From NCBI RefSeq assembly GCF_003334405.1, contig NZ_QOWM01000004.1: DNA of 64,000 nucleotides. One strand, written 5' to 3'. This document shows positions 1,622 through 26,923 of this stretch, one piece after another. The notes under the pieces are model-generated. The model did not search any database. It was not told the origin of the DNA and saw only the letters and a list, made by a program, of their open reading frames with translations. This DNA comes from Escherichia coli. Its GTDB lineage: Bacteria > Pseudomonadota > Gammaproteobacteria > Enterobacterales > Enterobacteriaceae. Position numbers and translations under genes: made by a program. Numbering within the stretch: position 1 is the first letter of the stretch; the number at the start of each line of letters is the position of its first letter.

Positions 1622-3462
<1,841 letters not shown>

Positions 3463-3490
3463 ATCCTTTTCAGCCGCGTATTGGCTTGTT

Positions 3491-3507
3491 TGCAAAGCGG
3501 ATGCCAG
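3491..3507 (-). promoter_or_regulatory. sigma54 (-24/-12) promoter of rutA operon
   Basis: Reverse strand reads TGGCAT-ccgct-TTGCA (GG-N10-GC spacing) about 30 nt upstream of rutA ATG. Confidence 0.7.
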
Positions 3508-3569
3508 TTTTTAAAAAGTTAATGTTATTAATCTGTTAACATTACGTTATCTAAAATATCTGGTAAAAA

Positions 3570-3587
3570 GTGGACTAAACGGTCAAA
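3570..3587. promoter_or_regulatory. RutR operator-like palindrome in rutA-rutR intergenic region
   Basis: tggactaaacggtcaa, reverse complement TTGACCgtTTAGTCCA, resembles the RutR box TTGACCAnnTGGTCAA. Confidence 0.55.
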
Positions 3588-3692
3588 ACAGTTGCACATA
3601 AAACATGCATCTGTGCGCGATGAGAGTGCAGAAGGTCGAGGCCGGGCGGGGGTTTTGCTATCCTGTTGCCAATCTACAAGAGGGGAGAGCGC

Positions 3693-4331
3693 ATGACGCA
3701 AGGCGCAGTGAAAACAACGGGTAAACGTTCGCGCGCAGTAAGCGCGAAGAAAAAAGCGATTCTTAGCGCAGCACTGGACACTTTTTCACAATTCGGTTTT
3801 CACGGCACAAGGCTGGAGCAGATCGCAGAGTTGGCGGGTGTTTCAAAAACCAATCTGCTGTATTACTTTCCGTCAAAAGAGGCGCTGTATATTGCCGTGC
3901 TGCGGCAGATTCTCGATATCTGGCTGGCACCGTTAAAAGCGTTTCGTGAAGATTTCGCCCCGCTGGCGGCGATCAAAGAGTACATCCGTCTGAAGCTGGA
4001 AGTCTCACGCGATTATCCGCAGGCTTCGCGCCTGTTCTGTATGGAGATGCTGGCAGGCGCGCCGCTGTTAATGGATGAACTGACGGGCGATTTGAAGGCA
4101 TTAATTGATGAGAAATCGGCGCTGATTGCCGGTTGGGTCAAAAGCGGCAAACTCGCGCCGATTGATCCGCAGCATTTGATTTTTATGATTTGGGCTTCCA
4201 CTCAACATTACGCCGATTTCGCCCCTCAGGTGGAGGCGGTGACAGGCGCGACGTTGCGCGATGAGGTATTTTTCAATCAAACGGTTGAAAACGTGCAGCG
4301 GATTATTATTGAGGGGATTCGACCACGTTAA
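3693..4331 (+). CDS. rutR: RutR, TetR-family transcriptional regulator of rut operon
   Basis: ORF track 3666..4331; start trimmed to MTQGAVKTTGKRSRAVSAKKK (212 aa) with AGGGGAGAG SD; TetR HTH. Confidence 0.93.
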   Translation: MTQGAVKTTGKRSRAVSAKKKAILSAALDTFSQFGFHGTRLEQIAELAGVSKTNLLYYFPSKEALYIAVLRQILDIWLAPLKAFREDFAPLAAIKEYIRLKLEVSRDYPQASRLFCMEMLAGAPLLMDELTGDLKALIDEKSALIAGWVKSGKLAPIDPQHLIFMIWASTQHYADFAPQVEAVTGATLRDEVFFNQTVENVQRIIIEGIRPR

Positions 4332-4370: not shown

Positions 4371-7300
4371 TTAACCTATAGTCATTAAGCTGGCGTTACC
4401 GCCAGCGGCAGCGGTATTCACACTCAGCGAACGCTCGATATACAGCCGTTCCAGAAGGATATTGCTTTCGCCACGGGCAAAACCCTGCACCGAAACAATT
4501 GTGCCATCCCGCGCGGCAACTGCTTCACACAATGCGCGAAGCTGATCCGAATCACCGTGGAAGATCACCGCATCAAACGGTTGAGCGGTTATATTTTCCG
4601 CTTTCGCCAGTTGAATACGTTCGCTGACTGCCGATGGCAATGCCTTCACTAACTGACGATGCAGCGCGTCATCCGGCCACAGTACCTGGCTGCCCACCGC
4701 CAGCACGGCGGCGAGCTGAGTCAGCGCATCCTGCTCATCATCGGCAATACACAACACGCGCTCACGCGGCAGCAGCGTCCAGGTGTTGCGTTCACCCGTC
4801 GGCCCCGGCAGCAATCGTTGTGTTCCTGCCTGCGCCAGCTCGCCATATTGCGTACATAACGCCTGCAATTCTGGACGATTTGCTGCCCATTCCCGCAGTG
4901 CATTTAGCGGCTGAGTCAATGCGGCTTTCAACTGCGCATCGACCGGATACTTTGCATCCTGACGCGCGAGCGTCACTGCCAGCGCACTTTCCGGGCGATT
5001 CGCCAGCAGACGGTAGAGATAGAGCGGACCGCCTGCTTTCGGCCCGGTACCGGACAACCCTTCGCCGCCGAACGGCTGCACACCAACCACTGCGCCCACC
5101 ATATTACGGTTAACATACAGGTTACCAACATGGGCCGAGCCAGTGACCTGGGCGATGGTTTCATCAATGCGCGTATGGACGCCAAGCGTCAGACCATAAC
5201 CGGAAGCGTTAATCTGCTCGATCAGCTCTGGTAGCTGGTTACGGTTGTAACGCACCACATGCAGCACCGGACCAAAGACCTCTTTTTGCAATTCGGCAAA
5301 GTCATCCAGTTCGATCAGCGTCGGGGCGACAAAGGTGCCGCTTTGCCATTCACGGGCATCTTCGCTGTTTTCCCGCACCGCCTGGAACACCGGACGGCCT
5401 TTGCTACGCATGGTCTGAATATGGCGCTCAATATTGGCTTTCGCTTCGCTATCAATCACTGGACCGATATCGGTGGTCAGGCGACCCGGATTACCTATCC
5501 GGCATTCGGCCATTGCGCCGCGCAGCATTTTCAACGTGTGGTCGGCAATCTCATCTTGCAGGCACAGCACGCGCAGCGCCGAACAACGCTGACCCGCACT
5601 GTCGAACGCCGAGGCCAGTACATCCACGACGACCTGTTCGGTCAGTGCTGAAGAATCGACAATCATCGCGTTCATGCCGCCGGTTTCAGCGATGAGCGGA
5701 ATAGGGCGACCCTGAGCGTCCAGGCGGCTGGCGATATTGCGCTGCAGTAACGTAGCGACTTCGGTTGAACCGGTAAACATCACCCCGCGCACGCGATCAT
5801 CACCCGTCAGTTGCGCGCCCACGGTTTCACCCCGACCTGGCAGCAATTGCACCACGCCTGGCGGTACACCCGCTTCCAGCAAAATGGCGATCCCTTGCGC
5901 GGCAATCAGCGGCGTTTGTTCTGCCGGTTTTGCCAGCACGCTGTTACCTGCCGCCAGTGCGGCGGCGATCTGCCCGGTGAAAATAGCCAGCGGGAAGTTC
6001 CACGGACTGATACACACCACAGGCCCTAATGGACGGTGGGTTTCGTTAGCGAAATCATCCCGCACCTGTCCGGCGTAGTAGTGGAGAAAATCGACCGCTT
6101 CGCGCACTTCGGCAATGGCGTTACTGAAGGTTTTTCCGGCCTCACGCACCAGAATACCAATCAGTTGCTGCATCTGGCTTTCCATCAGCACGGCAGCGCG
6201 GTGCAAAATCGCTGCGCGTTCAGCCGGAGGCGTGGCAAACCAGATTGGCGCGTTATTAACCGCACTTTCCAGCGCCTGTTCTACTTCACGCGGCGTGGCT
6301 TCACGCACATAGCCCACAATATCTTTCGGTTCCGCAGGGTTAATAACGGGCGACATCTCACCTGCCGCTACCGGTTGTTCCAGCATTGGCAAGGCCTGCC
6401 ATTTTTGCAGTGCACTATTGAGCAGGGCAGAGGAGAGCGAGGCCAGGCGGTGTTCGTTAGCGAGATCCAGCCCTGCCGAGTTGTCGCGCCCGTGACCGTA
6501 AAGATCGCGCGGCAGGGGAATTTTCGGATGCGGTAATCCAGTTTGCCCTTCCTGTTGCGCCAGTTTTTCTACAGCAGTGACCGGATCGGCGACCAGTTCA
6601 TCCAGTGGCAAAGAGGTGTCGGCAATACGGTTAACAAACGAGGTGTTAGCACCGTTTTCCAGCAGGCGACGCACCAGATACGCCAACAGCGTTTCATGTG
6701 TGCCAACCGGAGCATAAATACGACACGGACGGTTAAGTTTGCCGTCGGCAACTTTCCCGGTGACCTGCTCATACAGTGGCTCGCCCATACCATGCAGGCA
6801 CTGGAACTCGTACTGACCCGGGTAGTAGTTCTGCCCCGCCAGTTGATAAATCGCCGCCAGCGTATGGGCGTTGTGCGTCGCGAACTGCGGGTAGATTAGA
6901 TTCGGCACCGCCAGCAGCTTTTTCGCACAGGCGAGATAAGAAACGTCGGTATACACCTTGCGGGTATAAACCGGATAACCTTCAAGGCCGTCCATCTGCG
7001 CACGCTTAATTTCACTATCCCAGTACGCGCCTTTCACCAGGCGAATCATCAGACGGCGACGGCTGCGGGTGGCGAGATCAATCAGGTAATCGATCACCAA
7101 CGGGCAGCGTTTTTGATAAGCCTGAATAACAAAACCGATGCCGTTCCAGCCTGCCAGTTCCGGCTCGAAACAGAGTTTTTCCAGCAGATCGAGGGAGATC
7201 TCCAGGCGATCGGACTCTTCGGCGTCAATGTTGATACCAATATCGTACTGACGCGCCAGCAGGGTGAGTGATTTCAGACGCGGGTAAAGCTCTTCCATTA

Positions 7301-8333
7301 CCCGGTCATACTGGGCGCGGCTATAACGCGGATGCAGCGCCGACAGTTTGATTGAAATGCCCGGCCCTTCATAGATGCCACGACCGTTAGACGCTTTACC
7401 GATGGCGTGAATCGCCTGCTGATAGGAAACCATATACGCCTGTGCATCTGCGGCGGTCAGCGCGGCTTCGCCCAGCATATCGTAAGAGTAACGGAAACCT
7501 TTCTCTTCCAGCTTGCGGGCATTGGCTAACGCTTCCGCGATGGTTTCGCCAGTGACGAACTGCTCACCCATCAGGCGCATCGCCATATCCACACCTTTGC
7601 GGATCAGCGGTTCACCGCTTTTACCGATAATGCGGTTCAGCGAGCGGGAGAGGCTGGCTTCGTTATGGGTGGAAACCAGTTTGCCAGTAAACAGCAGCCC
7701 CCAGGTGGCGGCATTAACAAACAGTGACGGGCTACGACCAATGTGTGACTGCCAGTTACCGTTGCTGATTTTGTCGCGAATTAACGCGTCGCGGGTGGCT
7801 TTGTCGGGAATACGCAACAACGCTTCCGCCAGACACATCAGCGCCACGCCTTCCTGCGATGACAGCGAAAACTCCTGCAATAACCCCTGGACCATACCTG
7901 CGCGACCACTGGCATTTTTTTGATTACGCAGTTTATCGGCCAGCTGATACGCCAGTTTGTGCGCCTGTTCAGCAACTGGCTGCGGCAGGCGGGCTTGTTC
8001 CAGCAGCATAGAAACCGCTTCGGTTTCCGGGCGGCGATAGGCCGCGGTGATCGCGGCGCGGGAAACCGACTGGGGCAATATTTGCTCGGCAAAGTCGAGG
8101 AATGGCTGGTGTGGTTCCTCTGCCGGAGTCGGTGCTTCATCGCTCTCATTGGCCGCGCCAGAAAGCAGCGCAGGTAGCTCCGGCAGAGTATCGCTGTTTT
8201 CCAGTTGTTCGAGATAAGAAAAAATCGCCTGCTTAATTAACCAGTGTGGTGTGCGATCGATACGTGTCGCGGCAGACTTAATACGCTCACGCGTCGCGTC
8301 GTCCAGCTTAACCCCCATGGTGGTGGTTCCCAT
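4371..8333 (-). CDS. putA: PutA, bifunctional proline dehydrogenase / P5C dehydrogenase and transcriptional repressor
   Basis: ORF track 4371..8399; start trimmed to MGTTTMGVKLDDATRERIKSAA (1320 aa, RHH N-terminus). Confidence 0.96.
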   Translation of the reverse strand: MGTTTMGVKLDDATRERIKSAATRIDRTPHWLIKQAIFSYLEQLENSDTLPELPALLSGAANESDEAPTPAEEPHQPFLDFAEQILPQSVSRAAITAAYRRPETEAVSMLLEQARLPQPVAEQAHKLAYQLADKLRNQKNASGRAGMVQGLLQEFSLSSQEGVALMCLAEALLRIPDKATRDALIRDKISNGNWQSHIGRSPSLFVNAATWGLLFTGKLVSTHNEASLSRSLNRIIGKSGEPLIRKGVDMAMRLMGEQFVTGETIAEALANARKLEEKGFRYSYDMLGEAALTAADAQAYMVSYQQAIHAIGKASNGRGIYEGPGISIKLSALHPRYSRAQYDRVMEELYPRLKSLTLLARQYDIGINIDAEESDRLEISLDLLEKLCFEPELAGWNGIGFVIQAYQKRCPLVIDYLIDLATRSRRRLMIRLVKGAYWDSEIKRAQMDGLEGYPVYTRKVYTDVSYLACAKKLLAVPNLIYPQFATHNAHTLAAIYQLAGQNYYPGQYEFQCLHGMGEPLYEQVTGKVADGKLNRPCRIYAPVGTHETLLAYLVRRLLENGANTSFVNRIADTSLPLDELVADPVTAVEKLAQQEGQTGLPHPKIPLPRDLYGHGRDNSAGLDLANEHRLASLSSALLNSALQKWQALPMLEQPVAAGEMSPVINPAEPKDIVGYVREATPREVEQALESAVNNAPIWFATPPAERAAILHRAAVLMESQMQQLIGILVREAGKTFSNAIAEVREAVDFLHYYAGQVRDDFANETHRPLGPVVCISPWNFPLAIFTGQIAAALAAGNSVLAKPAEQTPLIAAQGIAILLEAGVPPGVVQLLPGRGETVGAQLTGDDRVRGVMFTGSTEVATLLQRNIASRLDAQGRPIPLIAETGGMNAMIVDSSALTEQVVVDVLASAFDSAGQRCSALRVLCLQDEIADHTLKMLRGAMAECRIGNPGRLTTDIGPVIDSEAKANIERHIQTMRSKGRPVFQAVRENSEDAREWQSGTFVAPTLIELDDFAELQKEVFGPVLHVVRYNRNQLPELIEQINASGYGLTLGVHTRIDETIAQVTGSAHVGNLYVNRNMVGAVVGVQPFGGEGLSGTGPKAGGPLYLYRLLANRPESALAVTLARQDAKYPVDAQLKAALTQPLNALREWAANRPELQALCTQYGELAQAGTQRLLPGPTGERNTWTLLPRERVLCIADDEQDALTQLAAVLAVGSQVLWPDDALHRQLVKALPSAVSERIQLAKAENITAQPFDAVIFHGDSDQLRALCEAVAARDGTIVSVQGFARGESNILLERLYIERSLSVNTAAAGGNASLMTIG

Positions 8334-8367
8334 GCCATTACTCCTGTTGTTCAGAAAGGTGCAACTT

Positions 8368-8568
8368 AACGTTATCGTGAAATATCCATGATGTTGCAAC
8401 TTTGTGCAACCATGTTAAATGTGACATGCGTAGCAAGCTTAAAAATGAATGAAATGTTAATAAAAGAAATCGATATGACAGGGATTAAAAAAATAACTCA
8501 GACTTTTTCTCTGCGGCAGTTAACATTTTTGAAAGGTGCAACCGCAAAAAATGTGAGAGAGTGCAACC
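8368..8568. promoter_or_regulatory. put control region with clustered PutA operator motifs (GTTGCA / GTGCAAC) between divergent putA and putP
   Basis: At least five copies of GTTGCA-type motif (ggtgcaac, gttgcaac, gtgcaacc, ggtgcaacc, gtgcaacc) in the ~420-bp divergent intergenic region. Confidence 0.7.
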
Positions 8569-8755
8569 TGATGAAAAATAGTGTCGCTGAGCACTAAAAT
8601 TTAATGTAAATGGTGTGTTAAATCGATTGTGAATAACCAGCGCTTCCGGCAGGATACGGTCGCCCTGGTAAAACATAAACTCTGTTACCCCGTTCCGGTG
8701 GCAGATATAACGGCAAGTTTCGACATTGCCGATAATAATTTTTTGGAGACTTTAG

Positions 8756-10264
<1,509 letters not shown>

Positions 10265-26281: not shown

Positions 26282-26413
26282 GGAAGTGATAGGAAGTGAC
26301 CAGATAATACATATATGTTCTGTACTCTCTTGCGCATTTTGATTGTTGACTGAGTAACCAGACAGTTGATGTGCACGATTTCCCCTCGCCCTAACAGACG
26401 TGGGCGGGGGCAC

Positions 26414-26835
26414 CCGGTGTGTGCAATATACGAAAAAAAAGCCCGTACTTTCGTACGAGCTCTTCTTTAAATATGGCGGTGAGGGGGGGATTGACTCGCT
26501 TCGCTCGCCCTGCGGGCAGCCCGCTCACTGCGTTCACGGTCTGTCCAACTGGCTGTCGCCAGTTGTCGAACCCCGGTCGGGGCTTCTCATCCCCCCGGTG
26601 TGTGCAATATACGAAAAAAAAGCCCGTACTTTCGTACGAGCTCTTCTTTAAATATGGCGGTGAGGGGGGGATTGACTCGCTTCGCTCGCCCTGCGGGCAG
26701 CCCGCTCACTGCGTTCACGGTCTGTCCAACTGGCTGTCGCCAGTTGTCGAACCCCGGTCGGGGCTTCTCATCCCCCCGGTGTGTGCAATATACGAAAAAA
26801 AAGCCCGTACTTTCGTACGAGCTCTTCTTTAAATA
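26414..26835. repeat. Tandem direct repeat, 181-bp unit x ~2.3, each unit carrying a copy of the serX 3' end and its terminator
   Basis: Identical ORF-track fragments begin at 26419, 26600 and 26781 (period 181); sequence ccggtgtgtgcaatatacgaaaaaaaagcccgtactttcgtacgagctcttctttaaatatggcggtgaggggggatt... repeats exactly. Confidence 0.92.
26781..26835 (-). terminator. serX rho-independent terminator (copies recur in each repeat unit)
   Basis: Reverse strand immediately after tRNA CCA: GAGCTCGTACGAAAGTACGGGC hairpin followed by TTTTTTTT. Confidence 0.75.
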
Positions 26836-26923
26836 TGGCGGTGAGGGGGGGATTCGAACCCCCGATACGTTGCCGTATACACACTTTCCAGGCGTGCTCC
26901 TTCAGCCACTCGGACACCTCACC
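26836..26923 (-). tRNA. serX: tRNA-Ser (GGA anticodon), 88 nt with long variable arm and encoded CCA
   Basis: Reverse strand reads GGTGAGGTGTCCGAGTGGCTGAAGGAGCACGCCTGGAAAGTGTGTATACGGCAACGTATCGGGGGTTCGAATCCCCCCCTCACCGCCA. Confidence 0.95.

Follow-up and report, generated by a model that had tools for sequence, protein, structure and literature searches.

The 422-bp spacer between putA and putP in this E. coli genome is almost certainly the put control region, an autoregulatory region with five PutA operators that share the core GTTGCA and extend to approximately GGTTGCACC. The identity of the region, the motif cluster, its non-randomness, its conservation and the ribbon-helix-helix (RHH) domain of PutA come from the present analysis; PutA binding and the redox switch are taken from the literature. 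The put control region is well studied and the feature is already known. Our data bring no new biology of PutA, and the comparative data give small refinements. All positions refer to the window, the whole 64-kb stretch of DNA that was analysed, and the features are collected in Table 1.

Table 1. Features of the putA-putP control region, in window coordinates
Feature	Position	Strand	Details
putA-putP spacer	8334-8755		422 bp, exactly from the putA start codon to the putP ATG
putA	4371..8333	minus	trifunctional PutA: N-terminal RHH repressor domain, proline dehydrogenase and P5C dehydrogenase
putP	8756..10264	plus	sodium/proline symporter, divergent from putA; 502-aa ORF
PutA operator nearest putA	8358..8366	minus	aGTTGCAcc, core 8360-8365; +12 to +17 of putA TSS
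PutA operator, palindromic GTTGCAAC	8393..8400	no strand	first of adjacent pair; -17 to -24 of putA TSS, inside 17-bp promoter spacer
PutA operator, second of pair	8404..8412	minus	gGTTGCAca, core 8405-8410; -29 to -34 of putA TSS, overlaps -35-like TTGCAC
PutA operator, perfect extended motif GGTTGCACC	8536..8544	minus	core 8537-8542; -82 to -77 of putP P1
PutA operator	8561..8569	minus	gGTTGCAct, core 8562-8567; -57 to -52 of putP P1
Degenerate sixth site GTAGCA	8431..8436	plus	found by 1-mismatch scan
putA promoter	8376..8409	minus	TSS ~8376; -10-like GATATT 8386-8381; 17-bp spacer; -35-like TTGCAC 8409-8404 (hexamers inferred)
Published ArcA-P box ATGTTGCAACTTTGTGCAACCATGTTAAATG	8391..8421	plus	string-identical to PMC3798270 site; overlaps PutA operator pair
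Published ArcA-P box ATGTAAATGGTGTGTTAAATCGATTGTGAATAA	8604..8636	plus	string-identical to PMC3798270 site; covers putP P1 -10 region and TSS 8619
CRP-type half-site AAATGTGA	8417..8424	plus	13 nt, start to start, after operator GTGCAACC (8404)
CRP-type half-site AAATGTGA	8549..8556	plus	13 nt after operator GTGCAACC (8536); putative site centred near -59.5 of putP P1
69-aa ORF	8388..8597	plus	PGAP: hypothetical protein
ymdG small ORF, annotated 40 aa	8475..8597	plus	3' part (last 40 codons) of 69-aa ORF
63-aa ORF	8485..8676	minus	
putP 5' leader hairpin	8683..8703	plus	7-bp covarying stem, loop CCGUUCC, GTTCCG invariant

The spacer and its GTTGCA sites

The start codon of putA is an ATG at 8333-8331 on the minus strand. 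Its translation opens MGTTTMGVKLDDATRERIK, and the longer N-terminal translation from 8333 reads MGTTTMGVKLDDATRERIKSAATRIDRTPHWLIKQAIFSYLEQLE. PutA residues 1-52 align end to end with the RHH domain of PDB entries 2gpe, 2rbf and 2ay0 (E ~5e-31). On the other side of the spacer, putP starts with an ATG at 8756 and its product has the N-terminus MAISTPMLVTF. The RefSeq annotation of the identical K-12 locus agrees on both genes, naming putA a trifunctional regulator/dehydrogenase and putP a symporter. The spacer shows 100% identity to E. coli K-12 MG1655 over all 422 bp and is matched in 5421 of 5426 complete E. coli genomes, and the whole window is ~99.97% identical to the MG1655 record. Gene identity, orientation and annotation thus bear out the preliminary description, which had taken this stretch for the divergent putA-putP control region.

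When both strands of the spacer are searched, GTTGCA matches at 8360(-), 8393(+)/8395(-), 8405(-), 8537(-) and 8562(-). Because the two matches at 8393 and 8395 are one palindrome, GTTGCAAC, these six strand matches amount to five distinct sites. Two of the sites form an adjacent pair, with the string gttgcaactttgtgcaacc located at 8393-8411. The same description had claimed at least five GTTGCA-type motifs, two of them adjacent; we find exactly five exact sites, the pair, and one further site with a single mismatch (GTAGCA, 8431). The related heptamer GTGCAAC occurs in four copies in the spacer, and repeats longer than the hexamer include GTGCAACC (three copies) and GAAAGGTGCAAC (two copies). 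Elsewhere in the window, a small cluster of three GTTGCA matches within 35 bp lies inside flgA.

In sequence, genes, GTTGCA core and number of sites, the region does not differ from the E. coli K-12 put control region. The put region of Salmonella enterica serovar Typhimurium, a species with no locus in our sample, likewise has divergent putA and putP and a trifunctional autorepressor PutA. The Salmonella put spacer is ~420 bp long, and its control region was reportedly described by Hahn et al. in 1988 and by Ostrovsky de Spicer and Maloy in 1993. Among the sampled Enterobacteriaceae, the putA-putP spacer measures 389-478 bp.

Conservation of the operators across genomes

We retrieved 120 loci from a species-level genome collection with a degenerate DNA pattern for the RHH peptide PHWLIKQAI. 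All encode an RHH N-terminus, and they come from Enterobacterales, Pseudomonas, Aeromonas, Burkholderiales and other groups. putA and putP are arranged divergently at 75 of 116 RHH-PutA loci across the sampled genomes. Enrichment was tested at those 107 loci for which the complete 500 bp preceding putA were available. Across these loci, many of which are from closely related Pseudomonas and therefore are not independent samples, GTTGCA occurs at 8.8 per kb upstream of putA and at 0.61 per kb in the remaining sequence, which amounts to an enrichment of 14.5-fold. Every one of the 107 loci has at least two sites. An unbiased comparison of 6-mers upstream of putA in the 107 genomes placed GTGCAA, GTTGCA, GCAACC and GGTGCA at the top. 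At the cross-genome loci, the hexamer is flanked preferentially by G at -1 (65%) and by C at +6/+7 (76-77%), so that the extended motif GGTTGCACC emerges from 107 genomes without prior assumptions.

Among the loci outside the enterobacteria, those of Pseudomonas resemble E. coli closely. The RHH domain of Pseudomonas putida PutA (PpPutA45, PDB 2jxg/2jxh/2jxi) is related to that of E. coli PutA (E = 2e-20), and the Pseudomonas loci have the GTTGCA core, typically five sites, a ~460-bp spacer and a tight pair next to putA. The pair itself differs: in Pseudomonas it is a direct repeat, GGTTGCACCCGGTTGCACC, whereas in E. coli it consists of the palindrome and an inverted copy.

We then aligned the spacer from 19 Enterobacteriaceae. 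The operator pair at 8393-8411 is unchanged in all 19, and the invariant stretch that holds it spans 19 columns, TGTTGCAACTTTGTGCAAC. Exact copies of sites 8537 and 8562 are present in 16 of the 19 genomes each, and the remaining genomes deviate by one or two bases. Between the operator groups, the DNA is rich in indels and barely alignable. Site 8360 is restricted to E. coli and is absent from that position in the other 18 genomes; K-12 has it, as does an ST95 strain whose spacer differs at five other positions, and this divergent ST95 allele keeps all five sites intact. At the position of the degenerate site 8431, an exact hexamer (GTTGCA, or TGCAAC offset by ~2 bp) is found in E. albertii, Kluyvera, Mangrovibacter and a Pseudocitrobacter MAG. 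The sites thus turn over: 8431 corresponds to an intact hexamer in these four taxa, and 8360 is confined to E. coli. Read from the alignment, four of the five E. coli operators are ancient and the site nearest putA is E. coli-specific, and an ancestral site at 8431 appears to have decayed to GTAGCA. Because site 8360 is not kept outside E. coli, conservation is uninformative as to whether it functions. An ArcA box and the -35 and spacer elements of the putA promoter coincide in part with the invariant pair, so the perfect conservation of the pair is not to be credited to PutA alone.

Two long ORFs run across the spacer, and the preliminary description had called both spurious, giving their size as 60-70 aa. 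PGAP annotates the 69-aa ORF in essentially all E. coli genomes. In 17 of the 18 other Enterobacteriaceae, its frame is open for 12-44 codons before a stop (34 in E. albertii). The conserved first residues, MLQLCAT, are what the operator pair encodes when translated. No relative has a minus-strand ORF comparable in length to the 63-aa one; in their spacers, the longest ORF on that strand measures 11-51 aa. With frames that are not open in relatives, both long ORFs were rejected as conserved genes. That part of the earlier claim stands, and the word spurious goes too far for the 3' part of the 69-aa ORF, which is ymdG. The published ymdG sequence, MTGIKKITQTFSLRQLTFLKGATAKNVRECNLMKNSVAEH, equals the C-terminus of the 69-aa ORF, and its tagged product has been detected (PMC6001520). 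According to ribosome profiling, only the last 8 codons are translated (8571-8597, MKNSVAEH; bioRxiv 10.1101/511675). This 8-codon mini-ORF is not kept beyond E. coli and E. albertii.

These data bear on two other explanations of the motif cluster. One is that GTTGCA clusters by chance, or through the composition of an AT-rich intergenic region; in its favour, the hexamer is not enriched over the window as a whole (44 matches versus 57 +/- 8 expected), and other 422-bp stretches contain up to 4 matches. Six matches in the spacer are nevertheless far more than the 0.25 per 422 bp predicted by the rate outside it (Poisson P(>=6) = 3e-7). In 20,000 dinucleotide-preserving shuffles of the spacer, which averaged 0.41 matches, 4 reached five and none reached six. 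The count is thus well above random expectation, the point on which the preliminary description had let its proposal hang. The copies also share bases outside the hexamer, their positions are kept in the Enterobacteriaceae alignment while the surroundings diverge, and the hexamer is enriched 14.5-fold over 107 genomes. Shuffles, cross-genome enrichment and positional conservation together refute an origin by chance or composition, to which we give next to no probability. The motifs might instead be conserved because they lie inside a protein-coding 69-aa ORF, as its nearly universal annotation in E. coli and the detected ymdG product could suggest. Against this reading, the frame closes early in 17 of 18 relatives, indels abound between the operator groups, the ORF does not include site 8360, and ribosome profiling supports only the 8-codon ORF, which is downstream of the last operator (bioRxiv 10.1101/511675). 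Conservation through coding is likewise extremely improbable, and we retain PutA operators as the explanation of the cluster.

Promoters, ArcA, CRP and PutA repression

Published ArcA sites allowed us to place the promoters. An ArcA box at genome positions 1078163-1078193 is given as -45 to -15 of putA (Park et al. 2013, PMC3798270), which puts the putA transcription start site (TSS) at ~8376. The AATATC block is conserved together with the operator pair in the alignment of 19 Enterobacteriaceae. A second ArcA box is listed at -15 to +9 of putP P1, and footprinting of the P1 fragment showed protection of DR1 and DR2 (PMC3798270). This box puts the P1 TSS at 8619, in agreement with the reported location of P1 at -137 of the ATG (PMC2760140), and the block 8604-8636 is strongly conserved in the same alignment. 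Further putP promoters have been reported at ~-95 (P4) and ~-13 (P5) (PMC2760140). A consensus promoter scan returned 2 sites versus 1.9 expected and missed every documented put promoter, so it is uninformative here.

An ArcA ChIP peak has been reported, and in an arcA mutant putA was 30.8-fold and putP 2.4-fold higher (PMC3798270). The repeats at 8391-8421 could therefore be primarily an ArcA-P direct-repeat box for anaerobic putA repression, with only a secondary likeness to PutA sites. The exact 31-bp string is listed with three direct repeats in the study that reported the ChIP peak and the derepression of putA (PMC3798270), and the words TGTTAA and GTTAAA, too, are over-represented in the putA upstream regions of the genome set. 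The three repeats score 7, -0.1 and 10.3 bits, however, and the best of them is the TGTTAAAT element, outside the PutA pair. An ArcA box also leaves sites 8360, 8537 and 8562 unexplained. Pseudomonas loci likewise have clusters of GGTTGCACC, among them a tight pair close to putA, and the top enriched words are of the PutA type, not TGTTAA. We consider it very unlikely that ArcA accounts for the repeats in place of PutA. The sensible reading is that ArcA and PutA sites overlap at 8391-8421, neither replacing the other.

The spacer also contains CRP-type half-sites. Two of the window's three copies of AAATGTGA fall in this spacer, and the module GTGCAACC-N5-AAATGTGA at 8536 recurs at 8404-8424. 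In the alignment of 19 Enterobacteriaceae, the half-site at 8417 is conserved, as is GTGA at 8549. Compared with TGTGA-N6-TCACA, both putative CRP sites have perfect left halves and weak right halves, with 3/5 matches at 8417 (TAGCA) and 2/5 at 8549. The right half of the putative site at 8549, AAATGTGA-N6-GCAAC, overlaps operator 8562. The same 230 bp are common to PutA, to ArcA at its published site and probably also to CRP at these putative sites.

The operators are distributed unequally with respect to the two promoters. Three sites at -34 to +17 of putA clearly overlap its promoter, and two at -82 to -52 of putP P1 lie upstream of the core promoter. Gel shifts by Zhou et al. 2008 (J Mol Biol 381:174) reportedly revealed five GTTGCA operators, three being required to repress putA and two to repress putP, and their crystal structure is said to show contacts to a 9-bp element. 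The arrangement of three sites near putA and two toward putP matches that split. PDB 2RBF is the complex of PutA52 with operator DNA, and its 21-mer is presumably the 8537 site, TTTGCGGTTGCACCTTTCAAA or its complement.

Published work places PutA on this DNA. In a genome-wide gSELEX screen in E. coli, PutA bound only the putA/putP spacer, with a single peak (PMC8249747). Site 8537 is identical to the published PutA/2rbf consensus, cGGTTGCACc (PMC4655474). Gel shifts with 420-bp put control DNA gave a Kd of ~45 nM for PutA (PMC5293562). DNA-bound PutA represses putA and putP, and a switch driven by proline and FAD reduction moves it to the membrane (PMC5293562, PMC5879082). The RHH domain, the motif enrichment and the cross-genome conservation, together with the gSELEX result and the consensus, support the autoregulatory architecture that the preliminary description had proposed, in which PutA represses both promoters. 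PutA resembles the RHH repressors Arc, MetJ, CopG and NikR in placing a beta-sheet in the major groove at short repeated operators; PutA is reported to act as a single RHH dimer per site and not as a dimer of dimers on inverted repeats (PMC2777438). As an enzyme doubling as a repressor, it also resembles the trigger enzymes BirA, NadR and PepA (PMC8249747). PutA responds to the reduction of its FAD, after which it binds the membrane, and not to a co-repressor.

These observations are consistent with the following model. The N-terminal RHH domain of PutA would bind each operator, and when proline is scarce PutA would occupy the operators and repress both divergent genes. Proline oxidation would reduce the FAD cofactor and send PutA to the membrane as an enzyme, so that putA and putP would be derepressed. 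At the putA promoter, operator 8405 would lie on the -35-like hexamer, 8393 in the promoter spacer and 8360 just past the start. Occupancy of these three sites would exclude RNA polymerase, although we infer which operator affects which promoter step. On the other side, operators 8537 and 8562 lie 50-80 bp upstream of putP P1 and flank or overlap the CRP-like site. Here, PutA plausibly competes with activation by CRP, or it may target further putP promoters that have been reported.

A covarying hairpin in the putP leader

Separate from the operators, the putP leader contains a predicted hairpin that is a modest lead, and the only one here with discovery potential. RNAalifold, run on the 19-species alignment, predicts exactly the helix 8683-8703, with double changes at 5 of its 7 pairs; overall, 5-6 of the 7 stem pairs show compensatory changes. 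When the hairpin is taken together with a second candidate helix, 88% of cells in this alignment can pair (90% for the hairpin alone), versus 28-49% in slid controls, and none of 500 shuffles reached the observed score. We extended the comparison to a gapless alignment of 26 Enterobacterales, which adds Pantoea, Serratia, Yersinia, Pectobacterium and Brenneria. In this set the hairpin is 85% paired versus 27-45% in slid controls, and doubly changed cells number 49 versus 17.6 +/- 4.7 in shuffles. The presence of 12 U-G cells versus 2 C-A cells favours the putP-sense strand. The hairpin occurs across Enterobacterales, 42-120 nt upstream of putP, and is absent from the Pseudomonas loci. The covariation marks the hairpin as a genuine conserved structure.

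A published RNA 3' end lies close to the hairpin. Adams et al. 2021 (PMC7815308, supplementary file 3) map it 45 nt upstream of putP at genome position 1079260, class it as not dependent on Rho and flag it only as downstream of the ymdG uORF. In the window this end falls at 8711, 8 nt past the hairpin stem. The element at 8683-8703 is not a canonical intrinsic terminator or attenuator: the stem is followed by GAUAUAACGG with no U-run, and a terminator scan returned nothing. In a search of Rfam 15 over 8250-8850, the best matches scored 10-18 bits against thresholds of 50-65 (E > 3), and the match to the PutA 5' UTR thermometer RF02780 was at chance level. A literature search for a putP leader or 5' UTR element in enterobacteria found no description. 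The hairpin could be a non-canonical attenuator or processing stop that gives a short 5' UTR RNA, or its loop could be recognised specifically by a protein or small RNA; we offer this tentatively, as a proposal slightly less probable than an even chance. A stop at the hairpin would give an RNA of ~93 nt from P1 or ~51 nt from P4. If this is true, the hairpin would add a post-transcriptional layer to put regulation.

Other structures in the leader were also considered. A longer 5' hairpin at 8627-8678, present in the minimum free energy fold of the E. coli P1 leader, is only 59% paired across species and was rejected as a conserved element. The z-score for the fold of the whole P1 leader is modest, at -1.9. 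A second hairpin at 8708-8734 has 85% of cells paired and some covariation; it is missing or unalignable in 4-6 of the 19 species and is not called by RNAalifold. We also observe that UUCCGG in the hairpin at 8683-8703 can pair with the putP Shine-Dalgarno region, CUGGAG.

Operators, CRP-type half-sites and ArcA boxes

The putA-putP spacer (8334-8755) contains a duplicated module in which a PutA operator is joined with a perfect CRP-type half-site. The two copies are 76% identical and lie 132 bp apart. Two of the three copies of AAATGTGA in the window belong to this module. Published ArcA-P boxes also fall in the spacer, and TGTTAA words of the ArcA type are enriched upstream of putA across genomes.

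Features of the putA-putP spacer and putP leader
Feature	Position	Strand	Remarks
Module GTGCAACC-N5-AAATGTGA, two copies	8404-8424; 8536-8556		21 nt
Published ArcA-P box	8391-8421	+	PMC3798270; overlaps PutA operator pair
Published ArcA-P box	8604-8636	+	PMC3798270; spans putP P1 -10 region and start
ymdG small gene	8475-8597	+	annotated 40 aa; nested in 69-aa ORF
Covarying hairpin, putP 5' leader	8683-8703	+	covariation and conservation

When we aligned the spacers of 19 Enterobacteriaceae species, the operator closest to putA (8360-8365) was found in E. coli only. At 8431-8436, where E. coli has GTAGCA, the exact operator hexamer is aligned in E. albertii, Kluyvera, Mangrovibacter and a Pseudocitrobacter MAG. 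Judged from this alignment, both sites are instances of operator turnover.

Transcripts and RNA structure

The preliminary description had dismissed the 69-aa ORF (8388-8597, +) as spurious. Its frame is indeed not conserved, but the ORF contains the small gene ymdG, so the label is only partly apt. Ribosome profiling backs just 8 codons of ymdG, at 8571-8597 (bioRxiv 10.1101/511675). Because this short ORF precedes the P1 start of putP (8619), its translation requires a transcript initiated further upstream.

The putP 5' leader contains a covarying hairpin that is kept across Enterobacterales and is absent in Pseudomonas, with an invariant GUUCCG within and beside its loop. A published Rho-independent RNA 3' end maps to 8711 (PMC7815308), 8 nt beyond the hairpin. 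The hairpin matched no family in an Rfam search, and our literature search found no description of it. On the putA side, an Rfam match to RF02780 ("PutA 5' UTR thermometer") spans the putA leader and start codon (8304-8367, -). This match scores 15.5 bits where the threshold is 51 (E = 5.3), is at chance level and is not evidence for an RNA thermometer.

put loci in other genomes

Upstream of putA, RHH-PutA loci of the Burkholderiales type (L007, L015, L027 and others) have just 2-3 GTTGCA sites, and none has a divergent putP within 700 bp. Pseudomonas RHH-PutA loci typically have 5 such sites, and their spacer measures about 460 bp. The Silvimonas terrae locus (L006) has, about 190-250 bp upstream of putA, a perfect (TGCAAC)x12 hexanucleotide microsatellite that amounts to twelve tandem PutA cores and is adjoined by three ordinary GGTTGCACC-type sites.

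The locus is disrupted in E. coli EC22 (L123, from NZ_CM169479.1; positions 3001-3865 of the locus), where IS1 directly follows spacer position 152 (window about 8485) and is itself followed by a truncated pgaB. This arrangement entails a deletion of the putP-side operators and of putP through phoH and pgaD/pgaC into pgaB.

Other observations in the window

Three GTTGCA hexamers, one as GGTTGCAC, occur within a 35-bp stretch of coding sequence inside flgA (60447-60482). This cluster is probably due to chance, since published gSELEX reports the put spacer as the sole PutA target (PMC8249747). A comparison covering 50 kb gives about 99.97% identity, not 100%, between the window and the MG1655 record NZ_CP032667.1. 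Beside a tRNA at 26839-26923, the window carries 181-bp RtT-type tandem repeats (26413-26854), with two units (362 bp) fewer than that record.
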